Shown: positions 1 to 56,216 of the stretch, one piece after another | Layout of the letters: each line of letters starts with the position of its first letter | Numbering within the stretch: position 1 is the first letter of the stretch | NCBI GenBank assembly: GCA_951406725.2 | Contig: OX597820.1 | Span: forward strand, 27,218,001-27,282,000 | Source: Octopus vulgaris | Lineage: Eukaryota | DNA length: 64,000 nucleotides | Direction: 5' to 3' | Translations under genes and position numbers: made by a program | The notes under the pieces: model-generated | Seen by the model: only the letters and a program-made list of their open reading frames with translations | What the model was told of the DNA's origin: nothing | The model's database searches: none

Positions 1-1270
1 GCTGGGCATGCCGTGGTTGATGATGCGCAGACACGCGCTGAGACTGCGGCATCTCTGGCTCTATGTAGACGACGGTGAACAGGTGTGGTCGCCGTTTGTG
101 AGGCACGCTTTCCCGCAGCTCGTCTCCATGACCGAACTGCAGTCGTGGATCAAAAAGAGGCCGAGGAAGGGCGAATGGCACCGCGAGTGTCGCGTTGCTC
201 TCAAGCAACTCTGCCGTCCTGGGTCGACCTTAAGTGACTTCAACACAACCAAAGCATTCTATAGGGGTTTAGTGGAGGGGAGGTACGACGACGAGCTCGG
301 GGCGAACCTGGACGTCGACGAGGAGTACCTGACCCGCCTGTTCAGGACGACTTTCGGGCCAGGGCCCATGGACAACTTCCAGAGATCCCTGGCCTGGCAG
401 TGCTACCGAGAAGCGCTACCCGTTCGGGATAAGCTCTACAGACACGGCTCGAGAAACACGGGGCCGACCTGCCCGAGATGCGGTCAGAGCGACGAAACCG
501 TTCTGCACGCACTCGTTCAGTGTCCAACAATTTCCGACCTGTGGGCTTATGTCGAACAACTGCTGCCACGTGTGGGACGAGTCGGTTTATCAGCTGAGTC
601 TATCGTCAATATTGTCACGCCTCCTTCCTTCAAACGGGAAGGAAGAGCTATTTTCATCATCCTTGTGGCTATGGCGAAAGAATGTATCTGGTGGACGCGT
701 CTGAAAGGATTGGAGACAAACACTTTCCTCTCTGGTCAATCTCTCATCAACTTCTTCAAGTACCACTTGAAAAGGAAAGTGAGAGTAGAGAGGCAAGTTT
801 TGTCTAGCGAATGTTTTAAAAAAAGATGGGTGAATGTAGCAAGAATGGCACGTATGAATGACGAAGCCACCTTGAGCATAGTCCTATGAACCCAGAAATC
901 GAAAACAGAGAGTTGCTTATTTGCAAAAAAAAAAAAAAAAAAAGAAATATAAAATGTGACTTCATTGACCGAGGTTACCGTGGTCTTTTCCGTAGGCTTT
1001 TCTTTCCACGGGTAAACCTCACCTGTCCTCCCCTTTACACTTCATATTGACATTTCTGTGATAACGATCCCTATTGATCAATTTTTTTTTCCTATCCCCC
1101 TTTTTTTTTTAACCCCCCTTTTTTTTGTCCTCTTTCTCTCCTTTTACGATCCCTTTTGATCGAAACCCCCCCTTCCTTTTTTTTTTTTTTTTTTTAAACC
1201 TTCAAAAGAAAAGCTCTACCTTGTAATTTGTTCTATCTGTGTGCAGCCCTGTGTGGCTAATAAAGAAACA
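1..1270 (+). mobile_element. Tx1/L1-clade LINE, 3' part (copy 1; runs off the window start)
   Basis: Open ORF2 C-terminus with (G)LGMP motif and zinc knuckle CPRC-x8-H-x4-C; T-rich 3'UTR; ends AATAAAGAAACA directly on (TATC)n. Confidence 0.9.
8..889 (+). CDS. LINE ORF2 C-terminal region (post-RT plus zf-RVT-type CCHC), 5'-partial
   Basis: 293-aa uninterrupted frame: LAWQCYREALPVRDKL...CPRCGQSDETVLHALVQC...AKECIWWTR, typical of an L1/Tx1 ORF2 end. Confidence 0.85.
   Translation: MPWLMMRRHALRLRHLWLYVDDGEQVWSPFVRHAFPQLVSMTELQSWIKKRPRKGEWHRECRVALKQLCRPGSTLSDFNTTKAFYRGLVEGRYDDELGANLDVDEEYLTRLFRTTFGPGPMDNFQRSLAWQCYREALPVRDKLYRHGSRNTGPTCPRCGQSDETVLHALVQCPTISDLWAYVEQLLPRVGRVGLSAESIVNIVTPPSFKREGRAIFIILVAMAKECIWWTRLKGLETNTFLSGQSLINFFKYHLKRKVRVERQVLSSECFKKRWVNVARMARMNDEATLSIVL

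Positions 1271-1346
<76 letters not shown>
1271..1346 (+). repeat. (TATC)n microsatellite between LINE copies
   Basis: Perfect TATC run. Confidence 0.98.
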
Positions 1347-1348
<2 letters not shown>

Positions 1349-1990
1349 CCGACCTGTGGGCTGTCACGTGTGGGACGAATCCGCCTATCGGCCGAGTCTA
1401 TCGTGAGAATTGCTCCGCCCCTTCCCTCAACCGGGAAGGCAAGGCAGTTTTCATCGTACTGGTGGCCATGGTGAAAGAATGTGTGTGGTGGACTCGAGCG
1501 AAAGGATTAGAGACAAACACTTACCTCTCTGGCCAATCGCTCATCAACTTTTTCAAGTACCACTTGAAAAGGAAGGTGAGAATGGAGAGGGAAGTTTTGT
1601 CTCGCGAAAGATTCAAAAAAAGATGGGTGAATGTTGCAAAGATGGTGCGTGCTAGTAACGAAACCATTTTGAGCATGATCCTGTAGATCGTAAAAAAGAA
1701 AGAAAGAGAGCATTTTTGACCTCATGTGTTTATTTCCTCCCTGACTGGGGTTCCCGTGGTCTTTTCTGTAGGCTTTTCTTCCCACGGATGAACCCAATCT
1801 TGTTATATCAATGTTTACACCATTATTTCTGTGATACACGATTTTCTTTTTTTCCTTTTTTTTTCCTCCTCTCGATCCCTTTTGATCGCAATCTTACATC
1901 TTTTTTTTTTTTTTCCAACCTCGAAAAGAAAAGCTCTGCATTTGTATTTGTCCCCTCTGTATTCAGCCCTGTGTGGCTAATAAAAGAAAG
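1347..1990 (+). mobile_element. Tx1/L1-clade LINE copy 2 (diverged subfamily, 5'-truncated, with indels)
   Basis: Homologous to 533-1270 (MVKECVWWTRAKGLETN...RFKKRWVNVA); different 3'UTR; ends GCTAATAAAAGAAAG then TTATCTAT. Confidence 0.88.
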
Positions 1991-1997
1991 TTATCTA

Positions 1998-2849
1998 TTG
2001 AGACTGCGACATCTCTGGCTCTATGTAGACGACGGTGAACAGGTGTGGTCGCCGTTTGTGAGGCACGCTTTCCCGCAGCTCGTCTCCATGACCGAACTGC
2101 AGTCGTGGATCAAAAAGAGGCCGAGGAAGGGCGATTGGCACCGCGAGTGTCGCGTTGCTCTCAAGCAACTCTGCCGTCCTGGGTCGACCTTAAGTGACTT
2201 CAACACAACCAAAGCATTCTATAGGGGTTTAGTGGAGGGGAGGTACGACGACGAGCTCGGGGCGAACCTGGACGTCGACGAGGAGTACCTGACCCGCCTG
2301 TTCAGGACGACTTTCGGGCCAGGGCCCATGGACAACTTCCAGAGATCCCTGGCCTGGCAGTGCTACCGAGAAGCGCTACCCGTTCGGGATAAGCTCTACA
2401 GACACGGCTCGAGAAACACGGGGCCGACCTGCCCGAGATGCGGTCAGAGCGACGAAACCGTTCTGCACGCACTCGTTCAGTGTCCAACAATTTCCGACCT
2501 GTGGGCTTATGTCGAACAACTGCTGTCACGTGTGGGACGAGTCGGTTTATCAGCTGAGTCTATCGTCAATATTGTCACGCCTCCTTCCTTCAAACGGGAA
2601 GGAAAAGCTATTTTCATCATCCTTGTGGCTATGGCGAAAGAATGTATCTGGTGGACGCGTCTGAAAGGATTGGAGACAAACACTTTCCTCTCTGGTCAAT
2701 CTCTCATCAACTTCTTCAAGTACCACTTGAAAAGGAAAGTGAGAGTAGAGAGGCAAGTTTTGTCTAGCGAATGTTTTAAAAAAAGATGGGTGAATGTAGC
2801 AAGAATGGCACATATGAATGACGAAGCCACCTTGAGCATAATCCTATGA
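1998..2849 (+). pseudogene. Truncated ORF2 C-terminus of LINE copy 3
   Basis: Coding part of ORF 1716..2849; the upstream part of that ORF is read-through of the copy 2 UTR. Confidence 0.8.
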
Positions 2850-3219
2850 ACCCAGAAATTGAAAACAGAGATTTGGTTATTTGCAAAAAAAAAAAGAAAA
2901 ATATAAAATGTGACTTCATTGACCGAGGTTACCGTGGTCTTTTCCGTAGGCTTTTCTTTCCACGGGTAAACCTCACCTGTCCTCCCCTTTACACTTCATA
3001 TTGACATTTCTGTGATAACGATCCCTATTGATCAATTTTTTTTCCTCTCCCCCTTTTTTTAACCCCCCTTTTTTGTCCTCTTTCTCTCCTTTTACGATCC
3101 CTTTTGATCGAAACTCCCCCCTTTCCTTTTTTTCTTTTTTTTTTAAACCTTCAAAAGAAAAGCTCTACCTTGTAATTTGTTCTATCTGTGTGCAGCCCTG
3201 TGTGGCTAATAAAGAAACA
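1999..3219 (+). mobile_element. Tx1/L1-clade LINE copy 3 (5'-truncated, near-identical to copy 1)
   Basis: Starts mid-ORF (TGAGACTGC) right after TATCTAT; only a few substitutions versus 39-1270; ends on (TATC)n. Confidence 0.9.
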
Positions 3220-3500
<281 letters not shown>

Positions 3501-3613: not shown

Positions 3614-4488
3614 TACGCTAGGTTAACCAAAAGAAACCGGAATTTTGCAATATTATTTTACTGAATTGCTTTTATATATTTACACTTCTATCGCCCTTAA
3701 TGAATTCTCCATTTGAATCAATGCATCGGTCTAGAAGCGTTTTCCACTGTTCGAAGCAGTTCTAAAACTCCTTTGAAGCGATGACTTTTAACGCTTCCAT
3801 CGTTTTTATTTCTTCACCTCACCAGCTTTCGTCATCAGTAATGATCTTCGAAAAAAGATTCGAATCAACTTCCAACTGTTCTTTCAGTTCACGACACGCA
3901 TTCAGTCGGGACTGCTTTTCATCTTCCCCGAGCAAGCAAGGCATAAATGTTGCTGCAAATCTTTTCATTCGCTCAATATTCATTGGCAGGAGCTCCAGGA
4001 CTCACCAATCATATCAAAAAGCCAATTGCTCAGTGACGGTCCTTCAAGATCAGTTCATGAATTTACGTGATGTTTTCATTCGTTCGGGAGGTCGACGGTC
4101 ACCCAGAACGAGGTTGGTCATCAAGCGTCAAGTGACTATTCCTAAAGTGTGCAAGCTTCTCGTAAACTAGTGTCTTGCTCATGGTGGCGTCCTTGTAAGC
4201 TGCTTGAAGCATGACAACTATTTCGGCTGCCGTTTTCCCCAGCAGAAAACATAATTTTATGGAAGCACGCTGTTCCTTCGTTTGAGTCATCGCAAAAATC
4301 GACAAACAGAGGATAACCGCTTCAAAACAAAAACGCACCACGTGGCAGTATGACGATAACCAACGACGCTGGTCGGCAGACTGATGCCTGAGGGTCGCAT
4401 TAAGTCACTTCTAACGAAGAAAGCTTGAACTACAACGGGCTTGTTTCACAGAGAAAGTTTCAGGTTACTTTTGGCTACTCCCCTCGTA
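3614..4488 (-). mobile_element. Internally deleted mariner-type DNA transposon
   Basis: Degenerate TIRs (TACGCTAGGTTAACCAAAAGAAACCGG versus revcomp TACGAGGGGAGTAGCCAAAAGTAACCTG); HTH N-terminus EQRASIKLCFLLGKTAAE...DDQPRSG at 4099-4341; C-terminal remnant at ~3690-3860. Confidence 0.85.
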
Positions 4489-5005
4489 CGCACACATATT
4501 CGCATATAAACTTTTTGGCCATTGGCAGTTGGCTATCATGCGTAAACAGACTAAGAAGCATATGTCATATCAATACTATGTCGCCATCTTCTCAACGCAA
4601 AATGGATAAAGTCATTATGATTAAAAACTGTATCATTCTACCATCACCAAAAACAAACAAGCGGTGTCCAAAATAACTGCTTGCAATCTAAATAAAGAGA
4701 CGGATGTTATTACACAAGTCTTGCAATAACAACAGACACAGCATAACTATATACGAGACGGTCAAGTTTCCACACTACATGTATAATTTACAGCTTCATC
4801 AAACCTCAAAAGGGAAAATTCGTCAATACAAAATTTGATAGAATAATCTAAAGCTAAAAATAACTTTGGATCACACATGAATGGGTAATGTATGAAAATA
4901 CATTTTCAATACTAAAGAAATTAGGAAAGATAGAATTAGAATCTTTAGTAGAGAATATAAATACAAATAACAAATAAAAGTGTGAAAATCTAACTAAAAA
5001 TATTG

Positions 5006-5231
5006 TTTTCTATTCTAGTTACAAGGTCCGAAATTTTTGGAGAGGGGTTCAGTCGATTAGATCGACCCCAGTACGCAACCGGTACTTAATTTATCGATCC
5101 CGAAAGGATGACAGGCAAAGTCGATCTCGGCGGAATTTGAACTCAGAACATAAAGTCAGACGAAATACCTATTTCTTTAATGCCGCTAAGAATTTCGCCC
5201 GGCGTGCTAACAATTCTGCCAGCTCACCGCC
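5006..5231 (-). mobile_element. SINE B monomer (tail i) with a 13-nt tail-ii insert in the head
   Basis: Head with A/B-box-like motifs, central GTCGAC-rich body, tail i (...CCTTGT..CTAGAATAGAAAA); extra TATTTCTTTAATG at 5170-5182. Confidence 0.85.
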
Positions 5232-5239
5232 CTGATAAT

Positions 5240-5631
5240 CCTGTCAATTATAGGCACAAGGCCTGAAATTTTGGCGGAGAAGAATAGTCGATTATATCAA
5301 CACCAGTATTTCACTGGTACTTAGTTTATCGACTTCGAGAGGATGAAAAGCAAAGTCGACCTCGGCGGAATTTGAACGCAGAACGTAGCGACAGACGAAA
5401 TACCTATTTCTTTAGTACCCACAAGGGTACAGAGAGGACAAACAAGGACAGACAAACGGATTAAATCGATTATAAAGACCCCAGTGCGTAACTGGTACTT
5501 AATTTATCGACCCCGAAAGGATGAAAGGTAATGTCGACCTCGGCGGAATTTGAACTCAGAACGTAACGGTAGACAAAATATCTGTAAGCATTTCGCCCGG
5601 CGTGCTAACGGTTCTGCCAGCTCGCCGCCTT
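5240..5631 (-). mobile_element. SINE B dimer (tail-ii unit plus tail-i unit)
   Basis: Junction GAAATACC|TATTTCTTTA at 5404/5405. Confidence 0.88.
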
Positions 5632-6313
5632 TCTAAATAAAACTATTGGCAACGCAATGTACTCAAAACCATAAAAAACAAGCTAAATAACAAAACACAA
5701 TAAGCTACAAAACCGTGGAACAACTACTAAACAGAGACCAACAAAAGTCTAATTAGAACAAGTCAATCGAAAACAAGAAAGAAATGGAATATGGGAAAGG
5801 TTTAAGAATGCAAAATTATAAAGATAGCAATATGGCTATGAAATAACTTATAGGTGGACAGAATGAAAATGCATAAATATTGCCATGGACAAGCGAAAGT
5901 ACATCTCAAGGAATAAACTTAACAAGGAAATATGAACAACAAAAGCAAATACACATTTAGCCACTGCAAACTAAATAAAAACAGACAGGAACATCAATGT
6001 CACCAGGTTAAATGAAAATTTCTGTGTATCACCAACTGTTGTTACAAAGAAGAGTGGGTACATCTCAGACCGAGCCAATCTGTCGTCATGGAAAGTAAGA
6101 TACAGAAGCATATAGAAAATAAGATAGAAAATGTAGTTTTCATTGAAATCAATAACAAAACGGCTCAAATATAGAATTCTCAGTTGGATGCAAAATGAAT
6201 TAGAAAAATACAGGAAATAAAGACTCTCTTTAAAGTGCACTCACCGAAATCTGACATAGGAGAATTATATTTTCTACGAATACAGAAAGTAGAATCTTCG
6301 TAAAGTAGAAAAC

Positions 6314-6953
6314 TATTGGGCTGGTGCATAATTATTGCGGCTTTTTTTTTTCAACAAATTTTCTTCAATAAAAACAATGACAATATGTAACAAAAACCAT
6401 CTACTTCAATTACTGCTTCCCATTTGCTTGGTAGACGGTCAAACCGTCATTGAAAGATGTTTCTGTTAAATATTGTTATTGCTTTTGTTGAATAAAATTT
6501 GTTGAAAAAAAAAACGCAATAATTATGCACTAACGCAGGAGTGGCTGTGTGGTAAGTAGCTTGCTAACCAACCACATGGTTCCGGGTTCAGTCCCACTGC
6601 GTGGCATCTTGGGCGAGTGTCTTCTGCTATAGCCCCGGGCCGACCAATGCCTTGTGAGTGGATTTGGTAGACGGAAACTGAAAGAAGCCTGTCGTATATA
6701 TGTATATATATGTATATGTATGTATGTGTATGTGTTTGTGTGTCTGTGTTTATACCCCTAGCATTGCTTGACAACCGATGCTGGTGTGTTTACGTCCCCG
6801 TCACTTAGCGGTTCGGCAAAAGAGACCGATAGAATAAGTACTGGGCTTACAAAAAATAAGTCTCGGGCTCGATTTGCTCGACTAAAGGCGGTGCTCCAGC
6901 ATGGCCGCAGTCAAATGACTGAAACATGTAAAAGAGTAAAGAGTAACCAAATA
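6314..6953. mobile_element. Mariner-derived palindromic MITE with its right TIR split by a SINE A insertion
   Basis: TATTGGGCTGGTGCATAATTATTGCG...CGCAATAATTATGCACTAAC | SINE | TAACCAAATA; ~85-bp imperfect arms. Confidence 0.8.
6535..6943 (+). mobile_element. SINE A, full length
   Basis: GCAGGAGTGGCTGTGTGGTAAG head, GGGTTCAGTCCC B-box-like, CORE-like (C/T)CTTGGGC(A/G)AGTG, internal TA/TG repeat, GTAAAAGA tail. Confidence 0.9.
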
Positions 6954-12624: not shown

Positions 12625-13037
12625 TTTTGGCACAAAGCCAGCAATCATGAGGGAGGGTGCAATTCGATTATCTCGACCTCAGTATTCAACTGGTAATTAT
12701 TTTATCGATCCGGAAAGGATGAAAGGCAAAGTCGACCCCGGTAGCATTTGAAATAAGAACTTAAATTCGAGAGAAATGCTGCTAAACATTTTTTTCCAGC
12801 GTGGTAGTGATTCTTATTTCTTTACTGCCCACAAGGGGCTACACACAGAGGGGACAAACAAGGACAGACAAAGGGATTAAGTCGATTACATCGACCCCGG
12901 TGCGTAACTGGTACTTAATTTATCGACCCCAAAAGGATGAAAGGCAAAGTCGACCTCGGCGGAATTTGAACTCGGAACGTAACGGCAGACGAAATAGCGG
13001 TAAGTATTTCGTCCAGCGTGCTAACGATTCTGCCATC
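12625..13037 (-). mobile_element. SINE B: tail-ii unit joined to an old tail-i copy at the second (A-box) site
   Basis: Junction GATTCT|TATTTCTTTAC at 12814/12815. Confidence 0.82.
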
Positions 13038-13805: not shown

Positions 13806-13971
13806 ATATTATCATAACATGTGACAATGCTACCATATATATTTTTTATTTTTATTTTTTATTTTATCTAGTTTCAGCTCACGAGCTGTGGCCATGTGAC
13901 TATGCAACAAAAACCGTTTTCTGCAACGTCAACATCAACAGTAAAAGTGCCTCAATATTGTTTTTCCTATT

Positions 13972-14382
13972 GCGGCGAGCTGGCAGAATCGTTAGTACGC
14001 CGAGTGAAATACTTAGTGGTATTTCGTTCTGAGTTCAAATTCCGCCAAGGTCGACTTTACCTTTCATCCTTTTGGAGTCGATTAAATAAGTACCAGTTAC
14101 GCACTGGGGTCGATGTAATCGACTTAATCCCTTTGTTTGTCCCCTCTATGTTTAGCCCCTTGTGGGTAATAAAGAAATAAGAAACGTTAGCTCATCGGGC
14201 AAAATGCTTAGCGATATTTCGTCTGTCTTTGTGTTCTGAGCTCAAATTCCGCCGAGGTCGACTTTGCCTTTCGTCCTTTCGAGGTCCATAAATTAAGTAA
14301 CAGTTGCGTACCGAGGTCAATCTAATCGACTAGCACTTTCCGCCAAAATTTCGGGCCTTGTGCCTAGAATACAAAAGAATAT
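13972..14382 (+). mobile_element. SINE B dimer (tail ii joined at the A-box site to a tail-i copy)
   Basis: AAAGAAATA|AGAAACGTTAGC at 14179/14180. Confidence 0.85.
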
Positions 14383-15435: not shown

Positions 15436-15458
15436 GAGTAATATTGTTTTTCCAATTG

Positions 15459-15649
15459 TGGCGAGCTGACAGAAATGCGTAGCTGTATTTCGTCTGTCGT
15501 TACGTTCCGAGTTCAAATTCCGCCGAGGTCGACTTTGCCTTTCATCCCTTCAGGGACGATAAATTAAGTACCAATGGGTCGACTTAATCCCTTTGTGTGT
15601 CCTTGTTTGTCTCCTCTGTGTTTAGCCCCTTGTGGGTAGTAAAGAAATA
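15459..15649 (+). mobile_element. SINE B monomer (tail ii) with deletions
   Basis: Family match. Confidence 0.8.
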
Positions 15650-22444: not shown

Positions 22445-22920
22445 CTTTGTTTTATATATAGTCTAGGCACAAGGCCCGAAATTTTGGGAGAGGGGGACAG
22501 TCGATTAGATCGACCCCAGTACGCAAATGGTACTTAATTTATCGAAACTCGAAAGAATGAAAGGTAAAGTCGACCTCGGCAGAATTTGAACTCAGAACGT
22601 AGCGGCAGACGAAATACCGCAAAGCATTTCGCCCGGCGTGGTAACGTTTCTGCCAGCTCACCGCCTTTTAACGGCAGACGAAATTCCTATTTCTTTACTA
22701 CCCACAAGGGGCTAAACATAGAGAGGACAAACAAGGACAGATAAATGGATTAAGTCGATTATATCGACCCCAGTGCGTAACTGGTACTTAATTTATCGAC
22801 TTCGAAAGGATGAAAGGCAAAATCGACATCGGCGGAATTTGAACTCAGAACGTAGCGGCTGACGAAATACCGGTAAGCATTTCGCCCGGCGTGCTAACGT
22901 TTCTGCCAGCTCGCCGCCTT
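22445..22920 (-). mobile_element. SINE B pair (tail-ii unit, 20-nt body stub, full tail-i unit)
   Basis: Junction GAAATTCC|TATTTC at 22687/22688. Confidence 0.86.
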
Positions 22921-23850: not shown

Positions 23851-23905
<55 letters not shown>

Positions 23906-23931
23906 ATATATATATATATATATATTTGTCT

Positions 23932-24368
23932 GGAAAGTGAGAGTAGAGAGGCAAGTTTTGTCTAGCGAATGCTTCAAAAAAAGATGGGTGAATGTAGCAA
24001 GAATGACACGTATGAATGACGAAGCCACCTTGAGCATGATCCTATGAACCCGGAAAAATTAAAAACAGAGCGTTACTTACTTGCAAATAAATGTGTTAAC
24101 ATGTGACATTATTGACCGAGGTTACCGTGGACTTTTCTTTCCACGGATAAACCTTATCTGCTTCCCCCTTTTACACTTTACATCATGACATTTCTGTGAT
24201 ACACGCTCCCTATTGATCGTTTTCTTTTTCTTTCTTACCTTTTTACGATCCCTTTTGATCGAAAACTTAACCCCCATTTTTTTCTTTTTTTCTTTCCCCC
24301 AAAAAGAAAAGCTCTACTTTGTAATTTGTCCCGTCTGTGTTCAGCCCTGTGTGGCTAATAAAGAAACA
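23932..24368 (+). mobile_element. Tx1/L1-clade LINE copy 4 (short 3' fragment)
   Basis: KVRVERQVLSSECFKKRWVNVARM..., 3'UTR, AATAAAGAAACA|TATCTATCTGTC; preceded by (TATC)n(TA)n. Confidence 0.88.
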
Positions 24369-25067
24369 TATCTATCTGTCACTCAAACTTTCTCTTTGGC
24401 TCTCTATATTTTCATTTCTTTGTAATAGCCATGTGATTTCAGAAGTTACGCTCACGCTAAACCGTGAGATTTCGGGTTCGACATCATTGCCAAACTATAA
24501 CGAGCAAGCGTCTCTTACCATATTCTCGGTTCAACTCTAGCTTTGTGAGCGAAATTGTTTGACGGAAACTGAAAGACTGCCTGTCGGACTGATTGTTTTT
24601 CGTAATTCAAAGATACAACGATCTGACAATGTGTTTATCAGGGAATAATATTAAAGGAAATAGGTAATGTAGCGCGTAATGTCGGGATGTGTAGTCCGCA
24701 GTGGACCTCCAGACGACTTTATATTTTTATGTGTTTGCTGTGGTAGGACGTTTTGATACGTCTAACGAACGGGGAGACAGATATGGTTGCCGCATATGGC
24801 GGCCAAAAGTCACGTTACGTCGTTAATGGTCACCTATTGAAAATATAAATCAATGAGTTGGCAGTTCATTTAATTGAACAACTGGCAAACACCATCGTCG
24901 AAACAGACGAAGAGCCATTTGCATCTGATATTATCTACTTTAACAAACACACGTACGCTCACTCACAAATACATGACATACATTCATATATATATATATA
25001 TATATATACAAGCGTACATATATATATATATATACTGATATATATATACATATACATACATATATAT

Positions 25068-40883: not shown

Positions 40884-41250
40884 CCTTTTTACTGGAAGCA
40901 CAAAGCCTCAAATTTGGGGGAGGGAAAGGGATTAAGTGGATTTACATCGATCCCAGTGCTTAACTGGTACCTTATTTAATCGACCCCGAAAGGATGAAAG
41001 GCAAAGTCAACCTCGGCGGAATTTGAACTCAGAACGTAGCGGCAGGCGAAATACCTATTTCTTTACTACCCACAAGGGGCTAAACACAGAAGGGACAAAC
41101 AAGGACAGACAAACAGATTAAGTCGATTATATAGACCCCAGTGCGTAACTGGTACTTATTTAATCGACCCCAAAAGGATGAAAGGCAAAGTCGACCCCGG
41201 GGGAATTTGAACTCAGAAAGTAAAGACAGACGAAATACCGCTAAGCATCT
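40883..41250 (-). mobile_element. SINE B dimer (ii-i), head truncated
   Basis: Junction at 41055/41056. Confidence 0.87.
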
Positions 41251-41717
41251 GAACATCGTACGGGCGGCATCTGAACATCGTACATAAAGAAGGACAAAAT
41301 GCCGATAAGCATTTAGTCTGGCGCTCCAACGTTCACGTTAACAATGATAATAATAATAACAGCAATAGTACAAGCATCATCAACGACAACTACGATGATG
41401 ATGATGATGATATGAAGACCAACATTCTGTTGAAGAAGATAATGGAGCTGGTGGTGGTGGTGGTGGCATTTTAAGGAAAAGTAATTTCCTGCTTCGCTGA
41501 TTACATTTATGCATTACTAGTTTACGAGACTGCAGACTATGGTACCATTCGACTTTGCAGGTTAAAGTACCAACACCAAACGCGCGCGCGCGTGTATATA
41601 TATATATATATGTATATATGTGTGTATCTCTCTCTCTCTCCCTCTCTCTCTATATATATATAATATATATATCGTCGTCGTGGTATACACACACACACAC
41701 ATATTATATATATATAG

Positions 41718-52125: not shown

Positions 52126-52350
52126 TTATTTCTTTACTACCCACAAGGGGCTAAACACAGAGGGGACAAACAAGGACAGACAAACGGATTACATCAACCC
52201 CAGTGCGTAACTGGTACTTATTTAAGCGACCCCGAAAGGATGAAAGGTAAAGTCGACCTCGGCGGAATTTGAACTCAGAACGTAGCGGCAGACGAAATGC
52301 CGCTAAGCATTTCGCCCGACGTGCTAACGATTCTACCAGCACGCCGCCTT
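52126..52350 (-). mobile_element. SINE B monomer (tail ii) with ~22-bp TSD
   Basis: TTTGAAACAAAA(A)TTAATAATAC at 52103-52125 and 52351-52372. Confidence 0.9.
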
Positions 52351-54268: not shown

Positions 54269-54920
54269 ATCATCATAATGACAAAACTATTTCGGTAGGT
54301 TGTTTTCCCCGCTTATTTTACAAATTAATTGAAAAGGTTACTGCATGGCCGCAGTCTGATGGCTGAAATAAGTACAAGATAAATATTTCAACAGAAATAC
54401 GGCAAACTAAAAGCTTGCACATCACCGAGTTTGTAAAAGTTCAGTCTCACGCATCTCATTAAAATTTCTATCATATTTCTTTTCTGCAACAACGTGGACT
54501 GTTTATTCTAGTTCGTAAATTGTCTCAGCAAATTCATCCCCTATCTTTCAATCGATAACAGAACGTGCACAATTTACGTGTTGTGGAGCTTATGGTTGGA
54601 ATTGTATTAAGATCGTTTTGATTTATTTGGAGTATTCTAAATTAGCCAGAATCGGCTACCACCAAATTTGCATCATCATATTGACCGTTTTATATGAAAA
54701 GTTGGGTACGTGGGGCTAAATGCAGAGTCAAAAGATAGACGATCACAGTGAGTGTAGTAGAGTAGTAGGTGTGAAGAGGTATATACGAAAGAGAGGGAGT
54801 GGGTGAGGGAGAGAGAGAGAGAGGAGAGAGAGGGTGAGGGAAAGCGGGGAGAGAGAGAGGTGGGGATTACTGTCGGTAGCAGTGTGAGTAACGTGTTACT
54901 TAAGGACAGAGGGGATTAGA

Positions 54921-55333
54921 GGACGGCGAGCTGGTAGAAATGTTAGCACGCCGGGCGAATTCGTGGCCGTATTTCGTCCGTCGTTACGTTCTGAGTTCAA
55001 ATTCCGCCGAGGTCGACTTTGCCTTTCATCCTTTCGGGATCGATAAATTAAGTATCAGTTACGCACTGTGGTCGATGTAATCGACTTAATACCTATGTCT
55101 GTCCTTGTTTGTCCCCTCTATGTTTAGCCCGTTGTGGGTACTAAAGAAATAGGTATTTCGTCTGCCGTTACGTTCTGAGTTCAAATTCCGCTGAGGTCGA
55201 CTTTGCCTTTCATCCTTTCGGGGTCGATAAATTAAATACCAGTTATGGACTGGCGTCGATGTAATCGACTTAATCCCTTTTCTGTCTTTGTTTGTTCCCT
55301 CTATGTTTAGTCCCTTGTGGGCAATAAAGAAAT
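54921..55333 (+). mobile_element. SINE B dimer (ii-ii)
   Basis: Junction at 55151/55152. Confidence 0.88.
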
Positions 55334-55669
55334 AAGGAGAGATGAGATTAGTGACAGAGGTGATGGATGAAGGTTTAGCAGTGTAGAGTGAGTCAACCGA
55401 TCAGTCCAAGTTTGAACTTTGATGCGTTATATGTATGTGTGAGAGTGTAATATATATGTACACACAAGCCCCGCCCCCGCCACACATACAGAGGCGTGTA
55501 TTATTAGCAATGGGAACATTATTACTTCAAGATATTAATAATTCGGTATATCATGCATAAAACATATATACAGTTGAAAGCCAGGAACTGCGGTATTCGT
55601 CTCGACAAAACATAACGTATTGAGGTATAGTGTTAAAAACGCAGAAATATATCAGTAAGAAATATATCA

Positions 55670-56086
55670 AGGTGGTAAGCTGGCAGAAACTTTAGCACGC
55701 CGGGCGAAATGCTTAGCGGTATTTCGTCTGCCGCGACGTTCTGAGTTCAAATTCCGCCGAGGTCGACTTTGCCTTTGATCCTTTCGGGGTCGATAAATTA
55801 AGTGCTAGTTACTCACTGGGATCGATATAATCGACTTAATCCGTTTGTCTGTCCTTGCTTGTCCTCTCTGTGTTTAACTCGTTGTGGGTACTAAAGAAAT
55901 AGGTATTTCGTCTGCCGCTACGTTCTGAGTTCAAATTCCGCCGAGGTCGACTTTGCCTTTCATCCTTTCGAGGTCGATTACATAAGTTCCAGTTACGCAC
56001 TGGGGTCGATGCAATCGACTTAATCCGTTTGTCTGCCCTTGTTTGTCCCCTCTATGTTTAGCCCCTTGTGGGCAATAAAGAAATTA
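55670..56086 (+). mobile_element. SINE B dimer (ii-ii)
   Basis: Junction at 55901/55902; followed by the same flank as the previous dimer. Confidence 0.88.
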
Positions 56087-56216
56087 GGAGAGATGAGATT
56101 AGTGACAGAAGTGATGGATGAAGGTTTAACGGTGTAGAGTACTTTAACCAATCAGTCCAAGTTTGAACTTTGATGCGTTATATGTATGTATGAGAGTGTA
56201 ATATATATGTACACAC

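Follow-up and report, generated by a model that had tools for sequence, protein, structure and literature searches.

An aborted insertion as a possible origin of a 15-nt tail fragment inside an octopus SINE

The 15 extra bases carried by one SINE copy of Octopus vulgaris are read here, with slightly better than even confidence, as the scar of an aborted target-primed insertion in which tail-ii SINE RNA would have been copied into a tail-i SINE at its head/body boundary. The copy lies in a window of 64,000 nt (contig OX597820.1, positions 27,218,001 to 27,282,000, forward strand), which is the whole stretch of DNA that was analysed. This window is AT-rich and microsatellite-rich and holds 32 units of one SINE family, each with a ~110-nt body common to all and a tail of one of two kinds (i or ii), and many of the units form head-(body-tail ii)n-body-tail arrays. 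The SINE head presumably contains tRNA-like A and B box motifs, and the body probably resembles the Meta domain. A tRNA gene scan (ARAGORN) returned 0 genes, and an Rfam scan of 4950-5700 gave 0 matches at E up to 1. The head/body boundary, at CTTAGC^GGYATT, is referred to below as the hot site. The host unit (B), the dimer next to it (A) and the parts of the stub are as follows.

5001..5232, minus strand: host SINE monomer B, with head, tail-i-marked body and tail i
5233..5633, minus strand: dimer A, composed of head, body, tail ii, junction (5396-5413), second body and tail i, with no spacer before the head of B
5634..5648, minus strand: possible target-site duplication enclosing A+B, 5' copy (13/15 match)
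4991..5005, minus strand: 3' copy of the same possible duplication (13/15 match)
5170..5184, minus strand: net gain, GGCATT + AAAGAAATA, slidable to 5168-5182 or 5164-5178
5179..5184, minus strand: GGCATT, the microhomology zone, either retained target (C-form body start) or tail-ii letters with one change
5170..5178, minus strand: end of tail ii, unambiguous over 9 nt (AAAGAAATA), the same in 11 of 12 full junctions
5161..5169, minus strand: body start after the junction, T form GGTATTTCG

From 5195 to 5161 the minus strand reads AAATTCTTAGCGGCATTAAAGAAATAGGTATTTCG, in agreement with the letters and coordinates of the original prediction, and unit comparison confirmed that the host is otherwise an ordinary tail-i monomer, with a body differing from the window majority at 7 of 112 positions. 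The insert had been described as 13 nt long, whereas the net gain over the empty site (5170..5184, minus strand) amounts to 15 nt, that is the 13 nt and a second GG. Its reported match with the end of tail ii holds for the last 9 nt (AAAGAAATA) and fails for the six letters before them: GGCATT precedes AAAGAAAT at the stub and in 0 of 20 tail-ii ends (19 from one scan and one added). The tail-ii form quoted at that time, GGCAAT, is found in 3 of these 20 ends and at 0 of the 12 hot-site junctions. GGCATT is the body start of the headed copies at 52312 and 41314, and the corresponding position is C in 3 of 6 headed tail-i units versus 1 of 13 headed tail-ii units, a count that omits unit 14026, which has a deletion there. 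Aligned contigs from three related organisms had loose ends at the empty site in its C form (948, 666 and 972 contigs) and in its T form (416 and 764 contigs in the two runs listing it).

Judged from these letters, the left boundary of the insert is ambiguous and only 9 nt are surely tail-derived, because GGCATT is likewise frequent as an empty-site sequence. Three parses stand. The earlier one, GG microhomology followed by 13 nt with one change, is still possible; a 6-nt near-duplication followed by 9 nt of tail fits as well; and the third is a perfect 15-nt copy of a seam after a C-form target. The candidate target-site duplication at the stub is accordingly GG exactly or GGYATT with one mismatch, and the microhomology of a deletion looks identical. 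At the primer side of the stub, the 3' end of tail ii is intact, as a deletion also predicts. Two side observations concern the same letters. The seam GAAATA-GG-TATTTC (5161-5175, minus strand, and all junctions) forms a short inverted repeat without mismatch. A fold prediction made without shuffle control, from which nothing is concluded, places the empty site in the loop of a long head hairpin.

The seam 18-mer AAAGAAATAGGTATTTCG occurs 13 times in the window with at most 1 mismatch. A full tail ii precedes 12 of the 13 seams and a head precedes the one at the stub (5161-5195), which is the single stub among these junctions; no other shortened tail is present among the 20 tail-ii ends. The hot site follows 12 of the 20 ends, some of them being copies of earlier junctions, and the proportion in Kojima's criterion for target preference is >20% of flanks. 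An assembly error or chance match appears very improbable: the 18-mer was found in 0 of 100 shuffles, an error would not reproduce the family seam exactly, and, of the words sampled from 4450-6300, same-organism runs contain a share of up to 0.86. What speaks for it is that 0 own-organism reads or contigs lie over the site. The single raw run with alignments, X21, is labelled as the same species and placed 9 of 12.9 million raw reads on 4800-5800, which is odd for so abundant a SINE and may reflect a filter effect or a label problem.

Reads or contigs aligned to 4800-5800 came from 4 of 24 runs, namely X21 and three contig runs from related organisms B, E and C, with 397,844, 184,179 and 243,679 aligned contig records, respectively. 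The SINE family is abundant in these three organisms. The insert (5169-5184) was crossed by no contig among the matches listed for organisms B, C and E in the best-supported rows; for the joints, the best 15 of 3856 rows were covered. Contigs matching the flanks placed the head of A in organisms B and E and the tail-i end of host unit B in organism E, and one contig of organism C aligned over 4800-4988, its other 524 letters being without a listed alignment. The shares of 0.19-0.20 obtained for organism C in the run survey are not used as evidence. Pattern scans of viral, metagenome and prokaryote genome contigs gave 0 matches to the junction, to the SINE body or to a head joined to the junction through a short insert.

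By the favoured reading, the endonuclease of a partner LINE would nick CTTAGC^GGYATT, and the nick at the hot site would prime reverse transcription on the end of tail ii. A second nick ~18 nt downstream would then leave an overhang with the sequence of a stretch of the SINE cDNA. Usually, the cDNA of a whole SINE would anneal to this overhang and give rise to a seamless head-(body-tail ii)n array. At the stub, the start of the overhang, GGYATT, would have paired early with a look-alike that lies slightly inside the tail, GGYA(G/A/C)T, so that reverse transcription stopped after 9-13 bases, the remainder was trimmed and a 2-6-nt duplication was left. Aborted target-primed reverse transcription was also the origin named in the original prediction and ranks first here, but a deletion within a dimer or a templated patch would yield identical letters.

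In the first of these alternatives, which we regard as unlikely, a head-body-tail ii-body-tail i dimer would have lost ~169 nt through microhomology repair, the GGCATT that opens unit 1 having been joined with GGYA(G/A/C)T close to the end of tail ii. Substrates are available, as the window contains 12 full junctions. The look-alike break matches 5 of 6 letters in 6 of 11 dimers, which serves deletion as well as insertion, and microhomology deletions of 12 and 20 nt are present in SINE units 14026 and 15504. In addition, the two target copies differ, with C in the left copy and T in the right one; a deletion needs no change to account for this given a C-form unit 1, whereas it counts against insertion, which requires one substitution or patchy mismatch repair. 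The sizes tell otherwise. Compared with one intact unit, the head/body deletions in the 32 SINE units measure 9-20 nt (one 14-nt value at the tail boundary is probably an alignment effect), and the loss required of a dimer is eight times any observed. Moreover, body and tail ii of the 11 real dimers offer 304 break pairs with at least 5 of 6 letters matching, and only 6 of these pairs break on the left at 6 nt or less from the hot site (90 within 22 nt), whereas the left break of the stub lies 2-6 nt from it. Loss of a whole unit through the 110-nt body homology would also be expected to dominate, leaving no scar. Break position and deletion sizes thus favour insertion, as judged from sequence, post hoc and for a single case, because the left break is close to the hot site and deletions in the family reach 20 nt at most against the ~169 nt needed.

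The body of B bears on the same question. At one diagnostic column, B is the only one of 12 junction-following bodies with the tail-i letter T, while the tail-ii letter or a different one stands there in the remaining 11 (Fisher p 0.006 against all 11; p 0.06 against the 5 ending in tail i). The tail-i letter is present at this column in 4 of 6 headed tail-i units. Because its body alone carries the tail-i mark (0 of 11 others), B does not look, by its sequence, like a leftover of the usual dimers, and this weighs against deletion. The scar event may have taken place in a source copy and not at the B locus, since B has no target-site duplication of its own while A and B jointly may have one, with a score reached by 3 of 300 random flanks.

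In the second alternative, quite unlikely in our estimation, the 15 nt AAAGAAATAGGTATT would have been patched from a seam-bearing template, either read-through array RNA or array DNA. The route would be template switching during reverse transcription or synthesis-dependent repair and would involve no site-specific nick, and we hold it to be equally doubtful; so too is the proposed path of the switch, with entry through the long body homology and exit through the look-alike GGYANT. A substitution-free parse is available to it, with a C-form target and a T-form donor. All 11 other junction-following bodies open with tail-ii letters, even when they end in tail i, and the change-over from tail-ii to tail-i letters sits at differing places, as for seams borne by templates. 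Furthermore, A+B and the composite at 22.6-22.9 kb each lie inside one possible duplication, which suggests template jumps. Against this, two switches would be needed within ~30 nt, the comparison restricted to tail-i units gives a Fisher p of 0.06, and tail-ii-like starts are also expected if the endonuclease prefers young, intact targets. The tail-ii starts in last units ending in tail i therefore fit seam-carrying templates or a preference of the endonuclease for young targets alike.

For array growth by insertion, other places in the window say more than the stub, which had been called the most direct local evidence that arrays grow by insertion. These are a duplication at 22687-22601, two tail-ii insertions at 12823 and 14171, and the tail shared with a LINE. 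The first of them and the duplications around tail-ii-ended elements are listed here.

22601..22687, minus strand: junction, then a 51-nt head flanked on both sides by an 18-nt copy of the body start (16/18 identical)
52342: duplication around a tail-ii-ended element, 14 exact, ~22 with one indel
59446: duplication around a tail-ii-ended element, 12
44801: duplication around a tail-ii-ended element, 9
54928: duplication around a tail-ii-ended element, 15/18

The simplest reading of the 18-nt duplication at 22687/22618 would be a staggered cut at the hot site, and as local evidence for insertion it is stronger than the stub. The composite to which it belongs (22601-22912, minus strand) is enclosed by a 17-bp duplication with 2 mismatches. 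The tail-ii ends at 12823 (minus strand) and 14171 (plus strand) join a second head site, before AGAAWC, in older tail-i copies; their 5' sides are seamless and their outer duplications measure 12 and 9 bp. Among the headed tail-ii-ended elements scanned, 4 of 5 have target-site duplications of ~9-22 bp.

The likely partner of the tail-ii SINE is found at the start of the window.

1..3218, plus strand: three tandem 3' fragments of an L1/Tx1-group LINE, with (TATC)n-type sequence, whose last 45-50 nt resemble SINE tail ii

The three LINE 3' ends align with four tail-ii ends over ~45-50 nt, and the LINE is likely, on this sequence likeness, to be the partner family of the tail-ii SINE. The LINE fragment contains a zf-RVT domain, and its longer relatives, named from Argonauta hians and Octopus bimaculoides, contain RVT_1 and zf-RVT and resemble APE-RT-zf-RVT clusters. 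When a full relative was compared with solved structures, L1 ORF2p was closest (E about 1e-50, versus 1e-24 for R2). The LINE of the window would accordingly be placed in the L1/Tx1 group, its membership of the Tx1 clade being putative. Some Tx1 families are known to target microsatellites (PMC4494074), and the octopus fragments sit at (TATC)n. Families of L1-Tx1 have been described as recently active in O. vulgaris (PMC13282606). Tandem 5'-truncated LINE fragments of this group were seen at 1-3500 and at 23900-24370 (both plus strand), two of them nearly identical.

Not every seam needs a nick of its own. The last units 5384 and 7578 (minus strand), which belong to arrays 2 kb apart, are nearest neighbours, 5.8% apart and sharing rare changes, with the next neighbour at about 12%; local duplication, conversion and a common source array are candidates for their likeness. 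Two dimers at about 54900-56150 (plus strand) have the same 3' flank and different 5' flanks. Because of this pair of neighbours and these dimers (at 55.3 and 56.1 kb) with a common 3' flank, junctions appear also to multiply by copying, and some seams would not be new nicks. Inner units (5.1%) are not clearly younger by this measure than last ones (7.0%), the difference being without significance (p 0.10). Rolling-circle copying of one RNA was set aside, as the last units vary in tail type and sequence.

Taken further, an octopod SINE driven by an L1/Tx1-group LINE might home into its own head/body boundary and so build seamless head-sharing arrays, the stubs and the head-only duplication at 22.6 kb being by-products that expose the cut site; this wider proposal is conceivable, at somewhat less than even confidence. 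Its insertions would be seamless because the SINE RNA matches the target. Several described systems are comparable. In SINEU with Tx1-Mar of crocodilians and Tx1L of Xenopus, a Tx1-group LINE mobilises a SINE that inserts preferentially into another repeat (PMC4494074, PMC1919474). The octopus elements are similar, the clade and target preference of their LINE being putative. Tx1-mobilised SINEs show target preference and tandem insertions (PMC4494074), and the tandem copies of SINEU/Tx1-Mar have been explained by sequential insertion (Kojima 2015, PMC4494074), as is proposed for octopus. The target of SINEU is a DNA transposon and its copies sandwich a duplication (PMC4494074), whereas the target in octopus would be the SINE's own head/body boundary and the joins are mostly seamless.

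Arrays of the form TSD-(SINE)n-TSD in the clam Scapharca broughtonii have a first unit with full head, later units cut at one head position and a single outer duplication, like those of octopus (PMC11481361), and the SINE-derived satellites and tandem repeats of squamates are also comparable (PMC10702118). Inner units have truncated tails in S. broughtonii, while those of octopus have a complete LINE-derived tail and the last units have mixed tails (PMC11481361). In their passages on the arrays, the authors of the clam study lean to unequal recombination (PMC11481361); insertion or unequal recombination as the origin of SINE tandem arrays is left open in the corresponding passages of the clam and squamate papers (PMC11481361, PMC10702118). 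The octopus SINEs OK, OR1 and OR2 and the MetaSINEs are abundant and have a tRNA-like head, a shared central body and a LINE-derived tail, a likeness by description only (PMC4824008, PMC4758252). The central-domain motif of MetaSINE/OR1/OR2 gave no match in the supplement PDF of PMC4824008.

For the stub itself, the nearest comparison is with 5'-truncated LINE and SINE insertions, which likewise have a short insert, a short duplication, 5' microhomology and a join within ~10 bp of the nick (PMC4245944, PMC11331408). Annealing or microhomology at 5' junctions and short duplications are described for truncated L1 (PMC4245944), and R2 templates with homology to the target produce seamless 'anneal' junctions (PMC11331408). 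Beside such insertions the 9-13 nt of the stub are extremely short, and these sources describe cell-line work on L1, L2, Nimb and R2, with neither Tx1 nor octopus elements among them (PMC4245944, PMC11331408).

A 15-bp scar in one dead SINE is by itself ordinary mobile-element debris, and its value is that of a pointer. The stub is a minor clue to a SINE that targets itself and is possibly undescribed: a search of freely accessible papers found neither these octopus arrays nor head-targeting by a SINE described, though Repbase, subscription papers or the PMC13282606 library at Zenodo may contain such a description. SINEs make up ~11.6% of the O. vulgaris genome (PMC13282606). A self-homing SINE, if true, would represent a safe-haven strategy and a way for retrotransposition to produce tandem repeats. 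As a check, a range of truncation lengths with a fixed 3' junction had been suggested; the fixed 3' junction is a weak discriminator, because deletion and junction-bearing templates predict one too, and the discriminating feature is where the left break lies. If the left breaks of stubs cluster at one site genome-wide, octopods would offer a direct computational test of self-targeted array growth.

Some further observations were made in the window. Two SINE copies at 13960-13985 and 15440-15470 (plus strand) have a common 5' flank of ~18 nt before the head, for which a 5'-extended source copy and a local duplication are candidates. At 41250-41330 (minus strand), an old tail-i head and body start are split by a 16-nt repeat together with a younger, head-truncated unit. 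A remnant of a Tc1/mariner transposase lies at 4099-4404 (minus strand; HTH_48, below the curated cut-off), and a MITE-like inverted repeat is present at 6312-6542.
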